Sequence record: OQ378934.1
Length of the DNA: 64,000 nucleotides
Strand: one strand, 5' to 3'
From: Escherichia phage LH2
Positions 2,369 to 32,233 of this stretch are shown piece after piece. Position numbers and translations under genes: made by a program. The notes under the pieces were generated by a model. That model searched no databases. It was not told the DNA's origin and saw only the letters and a program-made list of their open reading frames with translations. Within the stretch, counting starts at the first letter, position 1; the number at the start of each line of letters is the position of its first letter.

Positions 2369-2398
2369 GTTTACAAGTCCCTCGTGTTGTGTTATAGT
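2369..2398 (+). promoter_or_regulatory. T4 early-type promoter (GTTTAC -35, 18 nt spacer, TATAGT -10) upstream of alc, embedded in an inverted repeat
   Basis: gtttac at 2369-2374, tatagt at 2393-2398; near-identical element repeated at 14886-14915. Confidence 0.5.
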
Positions 2399-2426
2399 AG
2401 ACTTACTGACATAACATGAGGACTTT

Positions 2427-5961: not shown

Positions 5962-6191
5962 GTGAAAAACCAATTACTGTTAAAGAATTCCAAGAAAAAG
6001 TTAAACTATTTGCACAGGAATTAGTAAATAAGGTTTCTGAACGATTTCCTGAAACATCGGTTCGTGTTATTACCGAAACTCCTCGTTCAGTATTAGTAAT
6101 TGTGAATCCAGGTGATGGCGATCAAATAACGCATCTTAAACTGGATTTTGATGGATTAGTTGAAGCACAAAGGGTGTATGGCGTACTATGA
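5955..6191 (+). CDS. Hypothetical protein, 78 aa
   Basis: Coupled ORF. Confidence 0.4.
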   Translation: MLSEKPITVKEFQEKVKLFAQELVNKVSERFPETSVRVITETPRSVLVIVNPGDGDQITHLKLDFDGLVEAQRVYGVL

Positions 6192-6526
6192 TGAATTTAA
6201 CTGATATAATTGATAATTGTCTTGAAAATGATACTGGTGATCATAGAGCGCTTGACTCTGAAACAGCAAAGTTCATTAGAATAACTTTAATGAATGACAC
6301 TCTAGTGAATAGTATTCATCCTTCTGTGTATGATGCTATTATTGTGACGAAGTATCCAGTTGAGCTTCACAAAAAGATGACTGGCGCAGTTTTTATTGAT
6401 AAGAAAAACCGCTTTAAAGATGGGCAGAATATAATTAGTTCTGTTATTAAAAGTATAACTAAACTTCGTCACGAAATTTATCGTGTTGAAACTGCTAAAT
6501 CTGCTTATCTGGTGATTATGAAATGA
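6188..6526 (+). CDS. Hypothetical protein, 112 aa
   Basis: Coupled ORF (ATGA overlaps on both sides). Confidence 0.4.
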   Translation: MMNLTDIIDNCLENDTGDHRALDSETAKFIRITLMNDTLVNSIHPSVYDAIIVTKYPVELHKKMTGAVFIDKKNRFKDGQNIISSVIKSITKLRHEIYRVETAKSAYLVIMK

Positions 6527-7104
6527 AAGCGAGTACAGTACTTCAAATTGCATATTTAGTATCGCAGGAATCAAAATGTTGCTCCTGGAAGGTAGGAGCA
6601 GTAATTGAAAAGAATGGACGTATTATTTCTACTGGGTATAATGGTTCCCCCGCAGGGGGTGTGAACTGTTGTGATTATGCTGCTGAGCAAGGTTGGTTGT
6701 TGAATAAGCCTAAACATACTATCATTCAAGGTCATAAGCCTGAATGCGTATCATTTGGTTTAACTGATCGTTTTGTCTTGGCGAAAGAACATCGTAGTGC
6801 TCACTCGGAATGGTCATCTAAAAATGAAATTCATGCTGAACTAAATGCAATTTTGTTTGCTGCACGAAATGGTTCTTCTATTGAAGGTGCTACTATGTAT
6901 GTAACACTTTCTCCTTGTCCGGATTGCGCAAAAGCGATAGCTCAATCTGGTATTAAAAAGCTAGTTTATTGTGAAACATATGATAAAAATAAACCTGGCT
7001 GGGATGATATTCTGCGAAATGCAGGTATTGAAGTGTTTAATGTTCCTAAGAAAAACTTGAATAAGTTAAACTGGGAAAATATCAACGAATTCTGTGGTGA
7101 ATAA
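6523..7104 (+). CDS. cd: dCMP deaminase, 193 aa
   Basis: Zinc-binding motifs HAELNAI and PCPDCAKA; length as T4 Cd. Confidence 0.9.
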   Translation: MKASTVLQIAYLVSQESKCCSWKVGAVIEKNGRIISTGYNGSPAGGVNCCDYAAEQGWLLNKPKHTIIQGHKPECVSFGLTDRFVLAKEHRSAHSEWSSKNEIHAELNAILFAARNGSSIEGATMYVTLSPCPDCAKAIAQSGIKKLVYCETYDKNKPGWDDILRNAGIEVFNVPKKNLNKLNWENINEFCGE

Positions 7105-7340
7105 TGAAATTTCGTTTGGTACAACTCACAGCAATTAGTTCTTATTCTAATGAGAACATTTCATTTGCTGTAGAGTATAAGAAATATTTTTTCTCTAAAT
7201 GGAAACAGTATTATAAGTCAGAATGGGTTTGTATTGATAGGCCGTATAGTTGGAAATCTGATTTAGAAAAATGCCAAAAGTTGCTTTCCACTCTTAAAGA
7301 ACGTGGAACAACTCATATTAAAACTGTAATAGGTAAATAA
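7104..7340 (+). CDS. 31.2: Hypothetical protein (31.2-like), 78 aa
   Basis: ORF between cd and gene 31. Confidence 0.4.
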   Translation: MKFRLVQLTAISSYSNENISFAVEYKKYFFSKWKQYYKSEWVCIDRPYSWKSDLEKCQKLLSTLKERGTTHIKTVIGK

Positions 7341-7649
7341 ATGAAACTGACGACTGAGCAAAAAGTAGCAATTCGTGAAATTTTGAAAACTAAATTGTCC
7401 ATGGGTATTTCAAACGTGGTTTTTGAAAAGTCTGATGGTACTATTCGTACTATGAAAGGCACCCGTGATGCTGACTTTATGCCAACTATGCAAACCGGTA
7501 AATTGACTGAATCTACTCGGAAAGAATCTACTGATATGATTCCGATATTTGATGTTGAACTCGGTGCATGGCGAGGTTTTTCTATTGACAAATTGATTTC
7601 CGTTAATGGCATGAAAGTTGAGCATTTGCTTCAATTTATTGGTAAATAA
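7341..7649 (+). CDS. 31.1: Hypothetical protein (31.1-like), 102 aa
   Basis: ORF between cd and gene 31. Confidence 0.4.
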   Translation: MKLTTEQKVAIREILKTKLSMGISNVVFEKSDGTIRTMKGTRDADFMPTMQTGKLTESTRKESTDMIPIFDVELGAWRGFSIDKLISVNGMKVEHLLQFIGK

Positions 7650-7650
7650 A

Positions 7651-7675
7651 TGCTTTAAGAATTATTTGTTATTAT
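7651..7675 (+). promoter_or_regulatory. MotA-dependent middle promoter for gene 31 (MotA box TGCTTTA + TATTAT -10); a second MotA-box-like tgcttca at 7628-7634
   Basis: tgcttta 7651-7657, 12 nt spacer, tattat 7670-7675. Confidence 0.45.
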
Positions 7676-7705
7676 TAATTCATCTGTTAACAAAAAGGAA
7701 AAACG

Positions 7706-8041
7706 ATGTCTGAAGTACAACAGCTACCAATTCGTGCTGTCGGTGAATATGTTATTTTAGTTTCTGAACCTGCGCAAGCCGGTGATGAAGAAGTTACAGA
7801 ATCAGGACTTATTATTGGTAAACGTGTCCAAGGTGAAGTTCCTGAACTGTGTGTAGTTCACTCTGTTGGTCCTGATGTTCCTGAAGGTTTCTGCGAAGTT
7901 GGTGATTTGACTTCTCTTCCAGTTGGTCAAATTCGAAACGTTCCTCATCCTTTTGTAGCTCTGGGTCTTAAGCAGCCAAAAGAAATTAAACAAAAATTCG
8001 TAACCTGTCACTATAAAGCTATTCCGTGTCTTTATAAGTGA
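7706..8041 (+). CDS. 31: Gp31 co-chaperonin (GroES-like), 111 aa
   Basis: [29 protein letters not shown]... matches T4 gp31; length 111 aa. Confidence 0.9.
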
Positions 8042-8049
8042 TATAAATA
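8042..8049 (+). promoter_or_regulatory. Late promoter motif TATAAATA upstream of rIII
   Basis: Exact tataaata immediately after gene 31 stop. Confidence 0.35.
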
Positions 8050-8188
8050 ATAATATGAATTGGGTGTCGGAATAATAAGTTAACCGAACAATTCTATGTG
8101 GTAGTCTACAACTGAGAGATCTGTCGAAAGAAGATGAAATTCAGAAGAACGTGACTACCGAGTTTTAATCTCTAACGAGAATTTTTAA

Positions 8189-10501: not shown

Positions 10502-10770
10502 TGTTTGTCGTTCACACTATTTATGAAAATGAAGGTAATACTACACGTGATTACGGTCACGTAAATCAATTTTTTAGATGCAATCCAGAATTCCGAGCTC
10601 AAAAAGACGAACGAATTTTTAAAAAATGTGTAGAGCAAGGTTTCATTTACGTCAAGCACTGGATGCAAGGAAATAAAGTTAGAACTACATATCATAAGTC
10701 TTTGCCTGAGCTTAATGATGAATTGATTTATAATAGAGCTGTAAATCAAACTCTGAAGGATGAACAATGA
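10501..10770 (+). CDS. Hypothetical protein, 89 aa
   Basis: Coupled ORF (ATGA overlap with gene 30 start). Confidence 0.45.
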   Translation: MFVVHTIYENEGNTTRDYGHVNQFFRCNPEFRAQKDERIFKKCVEQGFIYVKHWMQGNKVRTTYHKSLPELNDELIYNRAVNQTLKDEQ

Positions 10771-12227
10771 TTCTTAAAATTCTGAATGAAATAGCATCTA
10801 TTGGATCAACTAAGCAGAAGCAAGCAATTCTTGAAAAGAATAAAGATAATGAATTGCTTAAACGGGTATATCGTCTGACTTATTCTCGTGGGTTACAGTA
10901 TTATATCAAGAAATGGCCTAAACCTGGTATTGCTACCCAGAGTTTTGGAATGCTGACTATTACCGATATGCTTGACTTCATTGAATTCACGTTAGCTACT
11001 CGGAAATTGACCGGAAATGCTGCAATTGAGGAATTGACTGGATATATCACCGATGGTAAAAAGGATGATGTTGAAGTTTTGCGTCGAGTGATGATGCGAG
11101 ACCTTGAATGCGGTGCTTCAGTATCTATTGCAAACAAAGTTTGGCCAGGTTTAATTCCTGAACAACCTCAAATGCTGGCAAGTTCTTATGATGAAAAAGG
11201 CATTAGTAAGAATATCAAGTTTCCAGCTTTTGCACAGTTAAAAGCAGATGGAGCTCGGTGTTTTGCTGAAGTCCGAGGTGATGAATTAGATGATGTTCGT
11301 CTTTTATCACGAGCTGGTAATGAATATCTAGGATTAGATCTTCTTAAGGAAGAGTTAATCAAAATGACTGCTGAAGCCCGCCAGATTCATCCAGAAGGTG
11401 TGTTAATTGACGGCGAATTGGTATACCATGAGCAAGTTGAAAAGGAACCAGAAGGCCTAGATTTTCTTTTTGATGCTCCTGAAATCAGTAAAGCTAAAGA
11501 GTTTGCCGAAGTAGCTGAATCTCGTACTGCTTCTAATGGAATCGCCAATAAATCTTTAAAGGGAACTATTTCAGAAAAAGAAGCCAAATGCATGAAGTTT
11601 CAGGTCTGGGATTATGTTCCGTTGGTAGAAATATACGGTCTTCCGGCGTTTCGTTTAAAATATGATGTACGTTTTTCTAAACTAGAACAAATGACATCAG
11701 GATATAATAAAGTAATTTTAATTGAAAACCAAGTAGTAAATAACCTAGATGAAGCTAAGGTAATTTATAAAAAATATATTGACCAAGGTCTTGAAGGTAT
11801 TATTCTCAAAAATACCGATGGATTGTGGGAAAATGCTCGTTCAAAAAATCTCTATAAATTTAAAGAAGTAATTGATGTTGATTTAAAAATTGTAGGAATT
11901 TATCCTCACCGTAAAGACCCTACTAAAGCAGGTGGATTTATTCTTGAATCAGAGTGTGGAAAAATTAAAGTAAATGCAGGTTCAGGCTTAAAAGATAAAG
12001 CCGGTGTAAAATCACATGAACTTGACCGTACTCGCATTATGGAAAACCAAAATTATTATATTGGAAAAATTCTAGAGTGCGAATGCAACGGCTGGTTAAA
12101 ATCTGATGGCCGCACTGATTACGTTAAATTATTTCTTCCAATTGCGATTCGTTTACGTGAAGATAAAACTAAAGCTAATACATTTGAGGATGTATTTGGT
12201 GATTTTCATGAGGTAACTGGTCTATGA
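10767..12227 (+). CDS. 30: ATP-dependent DNA ligase (gene 30), 486 aa
   Basis: MILKILNEIASIGSTKQKQAILEKNKDNELLKRVYRLTY... with adenylation motif QLKADGARCF; matches T4 gp30. Confidence 0.9.
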   Translation: MILKILNEIASIGSTKQKQAILEKNKDNELLKRVYRLTYSRGLQYYIKKWPKPGIATQSFGMLTITDMLDFIEFTLATRKLTGNAAIEELTGYITDGKKDDVEVLRRVMMRDLECGASVSIANKVWPGLIPEQPQMLASSYDEKGISKNIKFPAFAQLKADGARCFAEVRGDELDDVRLLSRAGNEYLGLDLLKEELIKMTAEARQIHPEGVLIDGELVYHEQVEKEPEGLDFLFDAPEISKAKEFAEVAESRTASNGIANKSLKGTISEKEAKCMKFQVWDYVPLVEIYGLPAFRLKYDVRFSKLEQMTSGYNKVILIENQVVNNLDEAKVIYKKYIDQGLEGIILKNTDGLWENARSKNLYKFKEVIDVDLKIVGIYPHRKDPTKAGGFILESECGKIKVNAGSGLKDKAGVKSHELDRTRIMENQNYYIGKILECECNGWLKSDGRTDYVKLFLPIAIRLREDKTKANTFEDVFGDFHEVTGL

Positions 12228-12412: not shown

Positions 12413-12434
12413 AGGCCTTCGGGCCTTTAATTTT
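12411..12434 (+). terminator. Intrinsic terminator (aaaggcc-ttcg-ggccttt + T-rich)
   Basis: 7 bp stem with UUCG loop followed by aatttt. Confidence 0.65.
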
Positions 12435-12441: not shown

Positions 12442-12470
12442 GAATAAGAATAAACACTAGAGAGGATATG

Positions 12471-14525
12471 ATGGAACTCATTACAGAATTATTTGACGAA
12501 GATACTACTCTTCCGATTACAAACTTAAATCCAAAGAAGAAAATACCGCAAATTTTTTCAGTTCATGTTGATGACGCAATTGAACAACCAGGCTTTCGTT
12601 TATGTACCTATACATCTGGAGGTGATACTAACCGTGATTTAAAGATGGGCGATAAAATGATGCATATTGTTCCTTTTACATTAACTGCTAAAGGTTCAAT
12701 TGCTAAATTAAAAGGTCTCGGTCCAAGCCCAATTAATTACATCAATTCAGTTTTTACTGTTGCGATGCAAACGATGCGTCAGTATAAAATTGATGCCTGC
12801 ATGCTTCGTATTCTTAAGTCTAAAACCGCTGGTCAAGCTCGACAAATTCAAGTTATTGCTGATAGACTTATCCGCAGTCGTTCAGGTGGCAGATACGTCC
12901 TTCTTAAGGAACTCTGGGATTACGATAAAAAGTATGCATATATTCTTATACATCGCAAAAATGTATCGCTAGAAGACATTCCAGGAGTTCCGGAAATTAG
13001 TACCGAGCTCTTTACTAAAGTTGAATCGAAGGTCGGCGATGTTTATATCAATAAAGATACTGGAGCTCAAGTAACTAAAAATGAGGCAATTGCAGCATCT
13101 ATTGCGCAAGAAAATGATAAACGTTCTGACCAAGCTGTAATCGTTAAAGTTAAAATTTCCCGTAGAGCAATTGCACAAAGTCAGTCATTAGAATCTTCTA
13201 GATTTGAAACACCAATGTTTCAAAAATTTGAGGCTTCAGCGGCAGAATTAAATAAACCCGCCGACGCACCTTTAATTTCTGATGCTAACGAATTAACTGT
13301 TATTTCTACTTCAGGATTTGCATTAGAGAATGCTCTTAGCAGTGTTACAGCTGGGATGGCATTCAGAGAAGCTTCTATAATTCCTGAAGATAAAGAATCC
13401 ATTATTAATGCAGAAATAAAAAATAAAGCTTTAGAAAAATTACGAAAAGAATCTATTACTTCAATAAAAACTTTAGAAACTATTGCTTCTATCGTCGATG
13501 ATACTTTAGAAAAATATAAAGGTGCTTGGTTTGAAAGAAATATTAACAGACATTCGCATTTAAACCAAGATGCTGCAAATGAGTTAGTACAAAATTCTTG
13601 GAATGCAATAAAAACAAAGATTATTCGAAGAGAATTACGTGGATATGCTCTTACCGCTGGATGGTCATTACATCCTATAGTCGAAAATAAAGATTCATCT
13701 AAATACACACCAGCGCAAAAACGCGGAATTCGTGAATATGTAGGTTCAGGATATGTAGACATAAATAATGCTCTTTTGGGATTATATAATCCAGATGAGC
13801 GTACAAGTATTTTAACAGCACCTGAAATAGAACAAGCCATTGATAATTTAGATTCAGCCTTTAAAAATGGTGAACGATTACCAAAAGGTATTACTTTGTA
13901 TCGTTCACAACGAATGTTACCTTCAATATATGAAGCAATGGTAAAAAATCGAGTTTTTTATTTTAGAAACTTTGTGTCAACATCATTATATCCAAATATT
14001 TTTGGTACTTGGATGACTGATTCATCTGTGGGTGTTTTACCAGACGAAAAGCGTTTAAGTGTTTCTATTGATAAAACTGATGAAGGGCTTGTTAATTCTA
14101 GCGATAATTTAGTCGGAATTGGATGGGTTATTACTGGGGCTGATAAAGTCAATGTTGTTTTACCCGGTGGAAGTTTAGCGCCTTCAAATGAAATGGAAGT
14201 CATTTTGCCACGTGGATTAATGGTCAAAGTTAATAAAATAACCGATGCATCTTACAACGATGGAACAGTTAGAACTAACAACAAGCTTATTCAAGCTGAA
14301 GTTATGACCACAGAAGAACTCACCGAATCGGTAATCTATGACGGAGACCATTTAATGGAAACTGGTGAATTGGTTGCAATGACAGGTGATATTGAAATAG
14401 AAGACAGAGTTGACTTTGCATCATTTGTTTCATCAAACGTTAAACAGAAAGTAGAATCATCTCTCGGAATTATTGCGTCTTGCATAGATATTGCAAACAT
14501 GCCTTACAAGTTCGTTCAAGGATAA
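12471..14525 (+). CDS. alt: Alt, head-packaged ADP-ribosyltransferase (about 684 aa)
   Basis: Length and position next to gene 30 and gene 54 as in T4; late promoter upstream. ORF-track start at 12468 is an adjacent ATG. Confidence 0.8.
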   Translation: MELITELFDEDTTLPITNLNPKKKIPQIFSVHVDDAIEQPGFRLCTYTSGGDTNRDLKMGDKMMHIVPFTLTAKGSIAKLKGLGPSPINYINSVFTVAMQTMRQYKIDACMLRILKSKTAGQARQIQVIADRLIRSRSGGRYVLLKELWDYDKKYAYILIHRKNVSLEDIPGVPEISTELFTKVESKVGDVYINKDTGAQVTKNEAIAASIAQENDKRSDQAVIVKVKISRRAIAQSQSLESSRFETPMFQKFEASAAELNKPADAPLISDANELTVISTSGFALENALSSVTAGMAFREASIIPEDKESIINAEIKNKALEKLRKESITSIKTLETIASIVDDTLEKYKGAWFERNINRHSHLNQDAANELVQNSWNAIKTKIIRRELRGYALTAGWSLHPIVENKDSSKYTPAQKRGIREYVGSGYVDINNALLGLYNPDERTSILTAPEIEQAIDNLDSAFKNGERLPKGITLYRSQRMLPSIYEAMVKNRVFYFRNFVSTSLYPNIFGTWMTDSSVGVLPDEKRLSVSIDKTDEGLVNSSDNLVGIGWVITGADKVNVVLPGGSLAPSNEMEVILPRGLMVKVNKITDASYNDGTVRTNNKLIQAEVMTTEELTESVIYDGDHLMETGELVAMTGDIEIEDRVDFASFVSSNVKQKVESSLGIIASCIDIANMPYKFVQG

Positions 14526-14528
14526 ATC

Positions 14529-14714
14529 GTGGAACTTATTACAGAATTATTTGACGGCGCTTCGGCGCCGGTTGTTAACTTAAATCCTAAGCATAAAATA
14601 CCACAAATTTTTGCTATTCAAGCCGGCGAAGAAAGCGTGCTTCCTGGATTTAGATTTTGTACATACACCTCTGGCGGTGATACAAATAAAACGTTAAACC
14701 AGGCGACAAAATGA
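14529..14714 (+). pseudogene. Truncated alt paralog, part 1 (alt.-1-like; homologous to Alt residues 2-62), GTG start
   Basis: MELITELFDGASAPVVNLNPKHKIPQIFAIQAGEESVLPGFRFCTYTSGGDTN vs Alt MELITELFDEDTTLPITNLNPKKKIPQIFSVHVDDAIEQPGFRLCTYTSGGDTN. Confidence 0.6.
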
Positions 14715-14914
14715 TGCATATCGTAATGATAGGTGTTAATGAGAAACTATCATTAGTTAAGCTTAAAAACTTGGGTGGAAATCCAATTGGTGTCATTAAT
14801 GCTGTTTTTGATACTGCTCTTCAAACAATGAAACAGTATAAAATCGACGCATGCCTATTACGCGTACTAAAAAGTTCAAAATGTAGTTTACAAGTCCCTC
14901 GTGTTGTGTTATAA
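14711..14914 (+). pseudogene. Truncated alt paralog, part 2 (alt.-2-like; homologous to Alt residues 64-120), frame-shifted relative to part 1 and ending inside an early promoter element
   Basis: MMHIV...GVINAVFDTALQTMKQYKIDACLLRVLKS vs Alt MMHIVPFTL...NYINSVFTVAMQTMRQYKIDACMLRILKS; reading frame then runs into the gtttac...tataat element. Confidence 0.6.
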
Positions 14915-14915
14915 T
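14886..14915 (+). promoter_or_regulatory. T4 early-type promoter (GTTTAC, 18 nt spacer, TATAAT) within a ~50 bp element repeated at 2369-2422
   Basis: gtttac 14886-14891, tataat 14910-14915; inverted repeat cctcgtgtt...ataacacgagg. Confidence 0.55.
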
Positions 14916-14946
14916 AATCTTACTGACATAACACGAGGAACACAAA

Positions 14947-15237
14947 ATGAAATCTTCTTTGCGCTTTTTAGGTCAAGAACTTGTAGTTGAAGGCGTTATT
15001 CCTGCTGATAATGCTTTTAATGAAGCAGTTTACGATGAATTTATCAAAATTTTTGGAACAGATAAAAAGTTCGGAATTTTTCCTTCTGAAAATTTTTCAA
15101 AGCCAGAGCAGACTGAAAGTATTTTCCAAGGTGTAGTAACAGGTAAATTTGAGTCAGAAGCTCCGGTAAAAATTGAAGTTTATATTGAAGACAGTTTAGT
15201 TGCTTCAGTTGCTGCTTTTATTTCATTCCGTAAATAA
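14947..15237 (+). CDS. Hypothetical early protein (alt.-3-like), 96 aa
   Basis: SD gagga 7 nt upstream; early promoter upstream; bidirectional terminator downstream. Confidence 0.45.
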   Translation: MKSSLRFLGQELVVEGVIPADNAFNEAVYDEFIKIFGTDKKFGIFPSENFSKPEQTESIFQGVVTGKFESEAPVKIEVYIEDSLVASVAAFISFRK

Positions 15238-15243
15238 AAATAT

Positions 15244-15261
15244 GGGGACCGAAAGGTCCCC
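15244..15261. terminator. Bidirectional terminator hairpin (ggggacc-gaaa-ggtcccc) between convergent genes
   Basis: Perfect 7 bp G/C stem with GAAA loop, flanked by A/T runs on both sides. Confidence 0.65.
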
Positions 15262-15265
15262 ATTG

Positions 15266-16231
15266 TTATATTGCTCCTAATATTTTACTTTGCGAGTTGA
15301 CAATTCCCGTCATAGTATTAATGTTTGAAATGCTTCCTGAGGTTCCTCCTAGTCTACTAAGTCGTGAAAGCGAATTAGATAGTCCAGTAACACCTCCACT
15401 ATTTCCGAGAACGCTTTGAATGCCATTTATAGCAGCAGATTCAAGCCACTCAAGCGCAGCTTGTCTATCAACCGACCCAGCCTGCATGACTCTATACGCA
15501 AAAGTAACATCAAATGTAGTTATTTGGTTATCTCCATCATATGATAACTCAGGAGCGCTCACTGACACTGGAATGCATCCGGTGAACATCACAGCAGTAT
15601 GAGGTAATCCATTACGAGCATGAAGATTAACCTGAATGTCTGCTTCAACATCTTGCGGCAAAGCACGTAATCCAGTTACTGGGTCTTGAACAGCGTTAAC
15701 CCAGTCTTGCATCGCACGATAATTACATGCTTCTGAATCCATCCTAAATGAAATAACCAAAGGGTCTAATTCTCTCCCAGTTATACGAATATTAGGAGAA
15801 TTATAGTTCCAGTCAGTTTCATAGGATAATCTATTCTCTGGCATTTTTACAGAATATATCATCAATCCAGATGAGTTATATGCCATGTTAAAGAAGTCAA
15901 TTAAATATGTACCAACCGTAAATGAGCCTAATAAACTTTGAACTGTGCGTTGACTCATGGCACCAATAAGATATTTACTGACTCCTGATTTTCTTATTAG
16001 TTTTTGTGTGCCAGCTGTAATTAGCGTGGTAATTCCCTGATTAATATCACCTTGAGTTAATCCTAACCAATTTGAATTTAGGCCCAAGTTATTATAAGAA
16101 AAGTTGCTAATTGAACTTATCAACGAAGAGCTTTTAGTTGATGGAGTTGTCGCAAAAACGCAGCTAAACATATTATTACGTTGGAAATCTGCGTTTATTG
16201 CTTGATTATTAAATTCCTCTAAAGAATACAT
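15266..16231 (-). CDS. 54: Baseplate tail-tube junction protein gp54, 321 aa
   Basis: Size and order 54-48-29-28-27-51 as in T4 baseplate hub cluster. Confidence 0.75.
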   Translation of the reverse strand: MYSLEEFNNQAINADFQRNNMFSCVFATTPSTKSSSLISSISNFSYNNLGLNSNWLGLTQGDINQGITTLITAGTQKLIRKSGVSKYLIGAMSQRTVQSLLGSFTVGTYLIDFFNMAYNSSGLMIYSVKMPENRLSYETDWNYNSPNIRITGRELDPLVISFRMDSEACNYRAMQDWVNAVQDPVTGLRALPQDVEADIQVNLHARNGLPHTAVMFTGCIPVSVSAPELSYDGDNQITTFDVTFAYRVMQAGSVDRQAALEWLESAAINGIQSVLGNSGGVTGLSNSLSRLSRLGGTSGSISNINTMTGIVNSQSKILGAI

Positions 16232-30667: not shown

Positions 30668-32233
30668 TTAGATACCTTTAACATATACACGGCGGAAGTA
30701 AGCGTTTTTACCAAGGCTATTCAGAATAGAAGGCATACCGCTCTGGATGCGAGAAGCCGGAGCTTGAGCAGCGGATTCTGCAAATGGGTTGATACCGATA
30801 CCGTAACGAGTTTTGAATCCCATTACTGGTTGGAAGTTCTTCGGATCGGAACCACGCAGCGGAGTCAGAGCTACATATGGAGCATAGTAAATACCAGCAT
30901 CCATTTCGTTCGGACCTTTATAACCTACAGTGAAATAATCCTGTTTAGCATACTGGTCGATATATACACGGTATTTACCACCCAGAACACCAGCAAATAC
31001 TGACTTGGTAGTATCAGTGTTAAAGCCGGTAGCCAGACCCTGTGCAGCATAAGAAATGCCAGTATCAACTGAAGCCAGAACGTTAACTACGTTACGGGAA
31101 GCGATAATGAAGTTACCTTCACCACGACCGGTCTGACGAGCAATTTCAACTGCTTCTTTGTCAATCTGGAACAACAGAGCTTTAAAGGATTCACCCGCCC
31201 AGCGAGCACCACGAATATCAATCGGATCCTGGAAGTCAAATACACCAGCTTTAGAACCTGGAGTCAGGGTCATACCAGATTTACCAACCTGAGCCGAGTA
31301 GTTAATCCAATCAACAACTTCACGGTTGATTTCCAGCATGATTTCGGTAGCCAGAATACCAGACAGTTCGGCATCAGCATCCATACCGTGAACAGCGCGG
31401 AGGTCTTGTGCTAATTCGATAGAGTAAGCAGCTTTCAGCTGGCGAGATTTAGCTTCGATAACTTGTTTATCGATACGGAAGCCCATTTCATTCCATGGGT
31501 TATCGGTAGAACCGTTGAAACCTTCCTGGAGTTCAGCGATAGAAGTAGCCATACCTTCAGCGATTTCTACCAATGCACCAGCTTCCATTTGTTTCTTAAT
31601 TTCAGCATCTAATTTAGCTGCATCAGTTGCGCTTGCACTAATTGTTACTTGAGCAGAAGCCTGCAGATACACAGTACCAGTGTCCTGGAAGAAGTGAGTA
31701 TAGATATCACCTACTGTGGTTTCTGTGCTAGCAGCCAGAGCCGGGAATTTCTTAGCAGCACCCTGACCAGAGAACATTGCATCTGGGCCATACATTGGGT
31801 GGAATGCTTCTTTAGCACCGGAAGCGATTGGGTCTTTACCATATACTGCGCGCAGTGCGAATACCTGGCCAGTCGGGCTGTTCATCGGCTGAACACCGCA
31901 AATATCGAAAGCAATCAGGTTAGGAATAGCACGACGTACCATACCCATAACAGCTGGGCCAATCTGAGTTACTGCGCCAGAAGTCTGACCAGCAGCGATG
32001 TTAGTAGCATTGTAACCGTGGTCACCACCGATTTCAGCTTCTGTTAAGAAAGAACCGAACGCCTGAGCGATTTTTTCGTCTTTGTACTCTGGAGCTGTCT
32101 GGAAATCTTTTTCCTGGTTTTCAAAGATTTTAGCGATAATCGCTTGTTTGCTATTAGCAATTTCCGGTAAACCTTCACCTTCCAGTAATGGCTTCCATTT
32201 GTTCAAAAGTTCAGCTTTAGTTTTGATAGTCAT
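30668..32233 (-). CDS. 23: Major capsid protein gp23, 521 aa
   Basis: MTIKTKAELLNKWKPLLEGEGLPEIANSKQAIIAKIFENQEKDFQ... matches T4 gp23. Confidence 0.95.
   Translation of the reverse strand: MTIKTKAELLNKWKPLLEGEGLPEIANSKQAIIAKIFENQEKDFQTAPEYKDEKIAQAFGSFLTEAEIGGDHGYNATNIAAGQTSGAVTQIGPAVMGMVRRAIPNLIAFDICGVQPMNSPTGQVFALRAVYGKDPIASGAKEAFHPMYGPDAMFSGQGAAKKFPALAASTETTVGDIYTHFFQDTGTVYLQASAQVTISASATDAAKLDAEIKKQMEAGALVEIAEGMATSIAELQEGFNGSTDNPWNEMGFRIDKQVIEAKSRQLKAAYSIELAQDLRAVHGMDADAELSGILATEIMLEINREVVDWINYSAQVGKSGMTLTPGSKAGVFDFQDPIDIRGARWAGESFKALLFQIDKEAVEIARQTGRGEGNFIIASRNVVNVLASVDTGISYAAQGLATGFNTDTTKSVFAGVLGGKYRVYIDQYAKQDYFTVGYKGPNEMDAGIYYAPYVALTPLRGSDPKNFQPVMGFKTRYGIGINPFAESAAQAPASRIQSGMPSILNSLGKNAYFRRVYVKGI

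Follow-up and report, generated by a model that had tools for sequence, protein, structure and literature searches.

Between alt, which encodes a packaged ADP-ribosyltransferase, and alt.-3, the DNA of Escherichia phage LH2 (OQ378934.1; the whole 64,000-nt stretch analyzed, a T4-like (Tequatrovirus) segment, is referred to here as the window) contains two small open reading frames that resemble the beginning of Alt itself. Are they a partial copy of alt, small proteins with a role of their own, one protein made by recoding, or the remains of a larger gene? We favor the last answer, with a probability of roughly 0.9: the two frames, known in T4 as alt.-1 and alt.-2, are the decaying pseudogene scar of a full-length second alt gene (here called alt2), left by a repeat-flanked deletion of 1,699 bp and a subsequent frameshift in a run of five A's.

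The order on the plus strand of the window is DNA ligase, alt.1, alt, the two small ORFs, and a 96-aa ORF, with genes 54, 48, and 29 converging on the minus strand. This matches the gene order of T4 (30, alt.1, alt, alt.-1, alt.-2, alt.-3, then 54, 48, 29). The features of the locus are:

10767-12227, plus strand: DNA ligase (ORF list)
between DNA ligase and alt, plus strand: alt.1, a 62-aa ORF
12468-14525, plus strand: alt, an ORF of 685 aa, 99% identical to T4 Alt; the packaged ADP-ribosyltransferase and older paralog
14518-14522, plus strand: Shine-Dalgarno sequence AAGGA of alt.-1, within the 3' end of alt, 6 nt ahead of the GTG
14523-14525, plus strand: TAA stop of alt, read from the sequence
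14529-14714, plus strand: alt.-1 ORF, 61 aa, GTG start, TGA stop (T4 annotation; phrog_23015, E 4.8e-46)
14711-14914, plus strand: alt.-2 ORF, 67 aa, ATG start (T4 annotation; phrog_15247, E 8.8e-50)
14947-15237, plus strand: alt.-3, 96 aa, DUF5498 (Pfam PF17602, E 1.4e-64; T4 annotation), the gene served by the promoter of the cassette described below

Over the 821 nt between the ends of alt and alt.-3, the window is about 98% identical to T4 and has the same gene order; judged by sequence, its small ORFs are evidently the orthologs of T4 alt.-1 and alt.-2. The matches to phrog_23015 and phrog_15247 run end to end, and both ORFs have matches in phrog_802, the Alt family, as well (positions 2-61 and 64-120, respectively). 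The stop of alt.-1 and the start of alt.-2 overlap as ATGA, and the two are read in different frames (14529 mod 3 = 0; 14711 mod 3 = 2). The AAGGA ahead of alt.-1 is unchanged in T4 and T6, while the start codon is GTG in the window and ATG in T4 and T6.

The likeness to Alt is far above chance. Joined, the ORFs align with residues 2-118 of the window's Alt (12468-14525) at 61% identity (E 2e-47), and the DNA of this stump is 66.5% identical to its own alt over 347 nt. A preliminary description of the locus, made from the sequence, had correctly placed the two ORFs and recognized in them the N-terminus of Alt, and the similarity stands at the DNA level as well. It had also viewed the pair as a decaying partial duplication. 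That the stump is a frameshifted, truncated, and decaying paralog of alt is borne out by the evidence below; its derivation is a different one, by deletion from a full-length tandem paralog.

This paralog is found in close relatives. We searched the 386-nt region by BLAST against 50,697 phage records. About one-sixth of the close matches cover 99% of the query. In most of them (T2, T6, RB27, RB68, and others), the match is confined to positions 2-347, with identities of 94-98%, and falls within a gene that the records describe as a full-length Alt-like ADP-ribosyltransferase. The alt gene of T6 and T2 (697 aa) has a second CDS, of 685 aa, 3 nt downstream of it, and then come the same promoter and alt.-3:

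6000-8057 in T6 (locus L002) and 6000-8057 in T2 (locus L003): alt2, intact gene, absent from the window

The intact duplicate that the preliminary description had proposed to seek in relatives is therefore present, in T2 and T6 and in some 400 records. At the DNA level, the stump shares 96.3% identity with the first 348 nt of T6 alt2 and 66.5% with its own alt. A search with 101 nt across the truncated junction matched 90 records at a coverage of at least 80%, and the deleted 1.6-kb segment matched 402 records at the same coverage; both are counts of records rather than of independent lineages, and they include RefSeq/GenBank duplicates and many T4 laboratory variants.

The proteins encoded by alt2 and alt are 43-46% identical, and are best conserved over the first approximately 300 residues (61-63% identity, versus 14-39% beyond). 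Pfam places an ADPrib_exo_Tox domain at residues 416-620 of the alt2 product (E 1.6e-19) and at residues 375-615 of Alt (E 1.4e-34), and the R, STS, and ExE motifs of the two proteins align. The joined 128-aa product of the stump has no Pfam domain, and the ADP-ribosyltransferase domain is absent from it. T4 and the window phage are natural deletion mutants for alt2. A sequence search of the PDB returned no solved structure for the N-terminal region of Alt, and weak CdtA-type matches to the enzyme domain only.

Alt itself also differs among these phages. Over the first approximately 300 alignment columns, Alt of T4 and the window shares 90-100% identity with the first Alt of T6 and T2, and in the C-terminal part 73%; a central block at about residues 280-410 (columns 300-450), immediately before and at the start of the enzyme domain, is only 26% identical and looks like a swapped or hypervariable segment. 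The longest alt ORF of the window opens with ATG ATG (12468-12473, MMELITE), one codon upstream of the start annotated in T4. The 7-residue propeptide of Alt (PMC9026906) would fit a cut of MMELITE after the Glu.

Alignment with T6 and T2 locates the break precisely. The left part of the window sequence corresponds to T6 L002 5972-6347 and the right part, from 14867, to L002 8038-8131. T6 and T2 contain two copies of the 9-mer CTAAAAAGT separated by 1,699 bp (in T6 L002, 6339-6347 and 8038-8046); the window has one, at the junction. When the 1,699 bp between the repeats are excised computationally from T6 or T2, the arrangement of the window and T4 results. The same junction is found in all 15 truncated copies that we aligned. 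The features of the break and of the frameshift are:

14867-14875, plus strand: deletion junction, a single copy of CTAAAAAGT (alignment with T6 and T2)
14876-14886, plus strand: last 11 nt of the ancestral alt2, TCAAAATGTAG, with its TAG stop at 14884-14886 (T6 L002 8047-8057)
14688-14691, plus strand: frameshift site, four A's where intact copies have five (alignments with alt2 of T6 and T2 and with SYGD1, N2, AV120, and SG1)

Since 1,699 cannot be divided by 3, the frame is lost through the final 11 nt of alt2 and into the promoter. Accordingly, alt.-2 comprises codons 63-115 of the ancestral alt2 and then a foreign tail of 12 codons (SKCSLQVPRVVL), which comes from out-of-frame reading of the alt2 3' end and the promoter. 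The alt-like sequence had been described as ending exactly where the promoter begins; the 5' homology stops at 14875, and the 11 nt of the alt2 3' end intervene.

The change of frame between the two ORFs, which the preliminary description also reported, is real, but the break lies at the A4 run rather than at the ORF boundary. T6 and T2 read GAT ACA AAT AAA AAC GTT AAG CCA GGC GAT AAA ATG ATG at this point; the window reads AATAAAACG, with one A fewer. The corresponding translations are GDTNKNVKPGDKMMH in T6 and GDTNKTLNQATK followed by a stop in the window. With one A missing from the run of five, the final eight codons of alt.-1 (TLNQATK and the stop) are out of the ancestral frame; alt.-1 therefore consists of alt2 codons 1 to about 53 and eight out-of-frame codons including the TGA, and BLAST matches these eight to Alt only by coincidence. 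At the start of alt.-2, ATG ATG corresponds to the internal Met codons 62-63 of alt2. Two phages, SYGD1 and N2, have the deletion but keep the A5 run and an unbroken ORF of 128 aa. Since they carry the deletion without the frameshift, the deletion came first and the frameshift later.

The history that we propose is as follows. An ancestor of T4 and the window phage carried alt and alt2 as tandem full-length genes, both encoding head-packaged ADP-ribosyltransferases. In the T4 lineage, a deletion of 1,699 bp between the 9-nt repeats removed alt2 codons 116 to approximately 682, joining the first 115 codons out of frame to the last 11 nt of alt2 and the untouched promoter. Later, the loss of an A from the A5 run split the 128-codon stump into alt.-1 and alt.-2. 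The stump is now free of selection and is gathering disabling mutations. In T4, the loss of DNA between short direct repeats through slippage or illegitimate recombination is a classic event, and a mechanism of this type probably operated here. The data show the deletion and the frameshift, the sequence in which they occurred, the relaxation of selection, and the transcription of the stump; how the deletion came about, and the lack of any function, are inferred.

The sequence that follows the stump is a cassette in which a stem-loop accompanies a predicted early promoter:

14886-14939, plus strand: early-promoter and stem-loop cassette, PeSL-like (promoter scan, fold, and repeat)
14886-14891, plus strand: -35 element GTTTAC (promoter scan)
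14910-14915, plus strand: TG-extended -10 element TATAAT, with a 17-nt spacer (promoter scan)
2369-2422, plus strand: second copy of the cassette, 54 nt, 93% identical, between ORFs 1205-2365 (386 aa) and 2427-2933 (168 aa)
15242-15263, no strand assigned: bidirectional terminator hairpin separating alt.-3 from the converging tail-tube gene 54

From T4 gene order, we take the ORFs that flank the second copy to be rnlA and alc, respectively. The predicted promoter, with 11 of 12 matches, outscores all others in the region, and its -35 element begins on the G of the TAG stop of alt2. The sequence from 14894 to 14941 is predicted to fold into a hairpin of -23.2 kcal/mol (z -4.2; none of 200 shuffled sequences folds as well), the 5' arm of which overlaps the spacer and the -10 element while the 3' arm covers the Shine-Dalgarno sequence of alt.-3 (GAGGA, 14935-14939). 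The first 30 nt from 14886 recur at 2369-2398 with one mismatch, and the full 54 nt at 2369-2422, with no chance matches expected for either; the preliminary description was thus correct in calling the promoter element repeated. It had also regarded the stump as fused to an early promoter. The promoter does lie directly downstream, but in T6 and T2 the same cassette comes after the stop of the intact gene; it is the native promoter between alt2 and alt.-3, untouched and involving no new fusion.

Several observations concern the cassette and its surroundings. The two copies in the window, 12.5 kb apart, are potential substrates for recombination. In MG010123.1 (Staphylococcus phage SAJK-IND), positions 31850-31896 contain 47 nt that are 98% identical to the T4-type cassette; this match lies about 280 nt from the end of the record and may represent contamination or a chimeric assembly end. 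The records OR584013 and PV654520, labeled as "Pseudomonas phage," are plainly Tequatrovirus genomes. The terminator hairpin at 15242-15263 reads GGGGACC GAAA GGTCCCC in the window and GGACC TTTC GGTCC in T4, so that, with a GAAA loop in one and a TTTC loop in the other, the hairpin appears flipped between the phages. A search of 14300-15400 against Rfam gave just two matches, both at chance level.

Is the stump expressed? No terminator-like site was found on the plus strand between alt and the stump, and a late-promoter motif (TATAAATA) is located at 12434, upstream of alt. In a published T4 time course, the RNAs of alt.-1 and alt.-2 are classed as middle, the same as alt, while the protein class of both is given as NA, that is, not detected (PMC9697503, Table S2), and the intensity of Alt.-1 is zero across all T4 samples (PMC9697503, Table S3). 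The T4 data thus show a transcribed stump, carried at the tail of the alt mRNA. Some translation of it may occur, as alt.-1 retains the old ribosome-binding site. The protein fragments that the preliminary description had suggested looking for in infected cells were not seen by T4 proteomics, though the RNA is present; this silence is weak evidence, supporting rather than decisive, as proteins of 61-67 aa easily escape shotgun proteomics.

The same study detected T4 Alt late and Alt.-3 early and strongly, with early alt.-3 RNA (PMC9697503). That alt.-3 RNA is early when alt, alt.-1, and alt.-2 are middle would fit with activity of the cassette promoter. A transcript started by this promoter, about 7 nt past the -10 element, would lack the 5' arm of the hairpin and leave the ribosome site of alt.-3 free, while read-through RNA from alt would mask the alt.-3 Shine-Dalgarno sequence. 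Extensions of the C-terminus of T4 Alt.-3 have been selected as escape mutations against the CmdTAC defence (PMC11618068); in the window, alt.-3 is intact at 96 aa.

The state of the stump among its carriers points to loss of function. An IMG/VR scan with the joined stump yielded eight loci, too few for statistics, and we drew on GenBank phage records instead. The alignment comprised 12 intact copies and 15 truncated ones, the latter from the window, T4, 11 further GenBank phages, and two IMG/VR contigs. The unbroken ORF is retained in only two of the truncated copies, SYGD1 and N2. Codon 6 has changed from GAA to TAA in eight of the 15, the A5 run is reduced to A4 in 11, and a T5 run within alt.-2 is reduced to T4 in four; F25 has lost one A from the A run at the junction, F1 has a 9-nt deletion, and the start codon of the window copy is weakened from ATG to GTG. 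No stop codon occurs in the first 115 codons of any of the 12 intact genes. Variant sites within the intact copies comprise two nonsynonymous and 38 synonymous changes, while variants exclusive to the truncated copies comprise nine nonsynonymous (nonsense included) and four synonymous changes, plus three indel events. The contrast of 9:4 with 2:38 is strong (Fisher exact p = 7e-6), with the reservation that sites, not events, were counted in 27 related, recombining sequences and the sites are not independent; an earlier test with only four intact copies was borderline (p = 0.05). Such a contrast is what should be expected if the deletion freed the gene from selection. Close relatives have the intact ortholog while the window copy is truncated and frameshifted, and selection is relaxed, with several independent disabling mutations among the carriers; both are marks of a pseudogene, and the stump probably has no function.

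Two observations run against the pseudogene reading. All 90 truncated records keep about 385 nt of the stump, and complete loss is seen in none of them; this universal retention could reflect a residual role or simply a recent event. In addition, both ORFs are open in T4 and the window, with the Shine-Dalgarno sequence and the ATGA overlap preserved. A rival reading is that the ORFs encode functional small proteins, made late together with Alt, that enter the prohead core or compete for packaging or processing by virtue of the shared propeptide (MELITE, with a gp21-type I-x-E cleavage motif) and N-terminal module. Alt.-1 does keep the N-terminus MELITELFD of Alt behind a good Shine-Dalgarno sequence, gp21 removes a 7-residue N-terminal propeptide from Alt (PMC9026906), the RNA is present in T4, and the first approximately 300 residues are the part best conserved between the paralogs. 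However, codon 6, which has become a stop in eight of the 15 truncated copies, encodes the cleavage motif's own Glu. Alt.-2 is hit by three more indel events, within it or at its end; changes exclusive to the truncated copies run 9:4, against 2:38 in the intact genes; neither protein is detected in T4; and the window has a weakened GTG start. We consider this explanation unlikely, and the competing N-terminal peptide suggested in the preliminary description finds no support, given the codon-6 stops, the extra frameshifts, the relaxed selection, and the T4 proteomics that lacks both proteins. There is, by our estimate, a slim chance that the stump is not inert, or that the loss of alt2 was adaptive. 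In the first case, the 128-aa form of SYGD1 and N2, or the split peptides of T4 and the window phage, would be produced late from the alt mRNA and, by way of the N-terminal module they have in common with Alt, would get into or obstruct the prohead core and tune the amount of Alt packaged. In the second, losing alt2 in the T4 lineage would have brought an advantage, for example escape from a host defence that senses the second packaged enzyme.

Partial duplication, in which only the first approximately 120 codons of alt were copied beside the early promoter and a stop and a new start were gained afterward, would account for the fact that the stump spans just residues 2-118 of Alt, and it is how the T4 GenBank note reads ("duplication of the first part of gene alt"). 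We judge it very unlikely. The stump matches the 5' end of the full-length gene of T2 and T6 far better (96% identity) than its own alt (66%); the 11 nt past the break are the 3' end and stop of that full-length gene, which are unexpected in a partial copy; and the 9-nt repeat lies at both ends of the deletion. Moreover, the full-length gene of the relatives would require a later, precise insertion of the 1.7-kb remainder with a working enzyme domain. As to programmed recoding, whether by a ribosomal -1 frameshift or by transcriptional slippage at the A run, the -1 relationship of the ORFs, the break at a homopolymer, and the ATGA overlap might suggest that a single 128-aa product is made. By inspection, however, the site UAAAACG does not fit the canonical X XXY YYZ heptamer, and four A's are far too few for efficient polymerase slippage; relatives show A5, A4, upstream nonsense, and extra frameshifts with no conserved recoding signal, and the joined product would still lack the enzyme domain. 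The probability of recoding is close to negligible.

Decay of a deleted alt2, our preferred reading, revises an existing annotation. For more than 20 years the feature has carried, in T4, the annotation of a duplication derived from alt; what it represents is an ordinary pseudogene remnant. In the T4 GenBank/RefSeq record, alt.-1 and alt.-2 are described as duplicating the beginning of alt, and the two appear among the paralogous alt duplications listed by Nolan et al. 2006 (PMC1524935). This was the only paper on alt.-1 and alt.-2 that our literature search recovered; Petrov 2010 does not mention alt, and no paper was found that states the deletion origin explicitly. The standard description as an old duplication of the first part of alt gives the wrong history: the stump would be the scar of a microhomology-mediated deletion, natural intermediates of which (deletion without frameshift) survive. 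T4, on which the three-enzyme model of ADP-ribosylation (Alt, ModA, and ModB) is built, lacks a fourth Alt-like gene that is apparently catalytically intact, to judge from its motifs, and that about four-fifths of the sequenced close relatives carry, T2 and T6 included. The literature search found nothing relevant describing a second alt gene in T2/T6-type phages, and no paper on alt2 targets or packaging. If the loss was adaptive, T4 would be a natural alt2 knockout, and alt2 the fourth ADP-ribosyltransferase of most T-even phages.

Duplicated alt genes, full or partial, have been described beside alt in other phages, namely RB49ORF183c, 44RRORF188c, and the full-length 44RRORF187c, the last a full-length alt duplicate in phage 44RR (PMC1524935). 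These loci belong to T4-like phages further removed from the window phage, at much greater divergence. The cassette downstream of the stump has its counterpart in the PeSL (promoter-early stem-loop) cassettes of T4-type phages (Arbiol et al. 2010; Comeau et al. 2014), with which it shares both the layout (stop codon, sigma70-like -35 and -10, stem-loop overlapping the -10, Shine-Dalgarno, and ATG; PMC2839356) and the repetition within the genome. The stem-loop of the window has no T tract. PeSL-mediated recombination was considered as the cause of the deletion and rejected; the deletion did not use the cassette, its right breakpoint lying 11 nt upstream, at the 9-nt microhomology.

The closest known system is the alt.-1/alt.-2 pair of T4 (NP_049810 and NP_049809; UniProt P39495 and P39494), which occupies the same position between alt and alt.-3 and shares with the window the CTAAAAAGT deletion junction and the A5-to-A4 frameshift. 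The window differs from T4 in starting alt.-1 with GTG rather than ATG, in the downstream -10 element (TATAAT in the window, TATAGT in T4), and in a few substitutions. The intact counterpart is alt2 of T2, T6, RB27, RB68, and approximately 400 Tequatrovirus records, named "Alt-like RNA polymerase ADP-ribosyltransferase" in RefSeq; the RB27 and RB68 records label this full-length paralog "alt.-2". Between the two, DNA identity over the first 115 codons is 96%, with the same alt upstream and the same promoter cassette and alt.-3 downstream; in the window, by comparison, the 1,699 bp that include the entire ADP-ribosyltransferase domain are gone, and a frameshift has been added.
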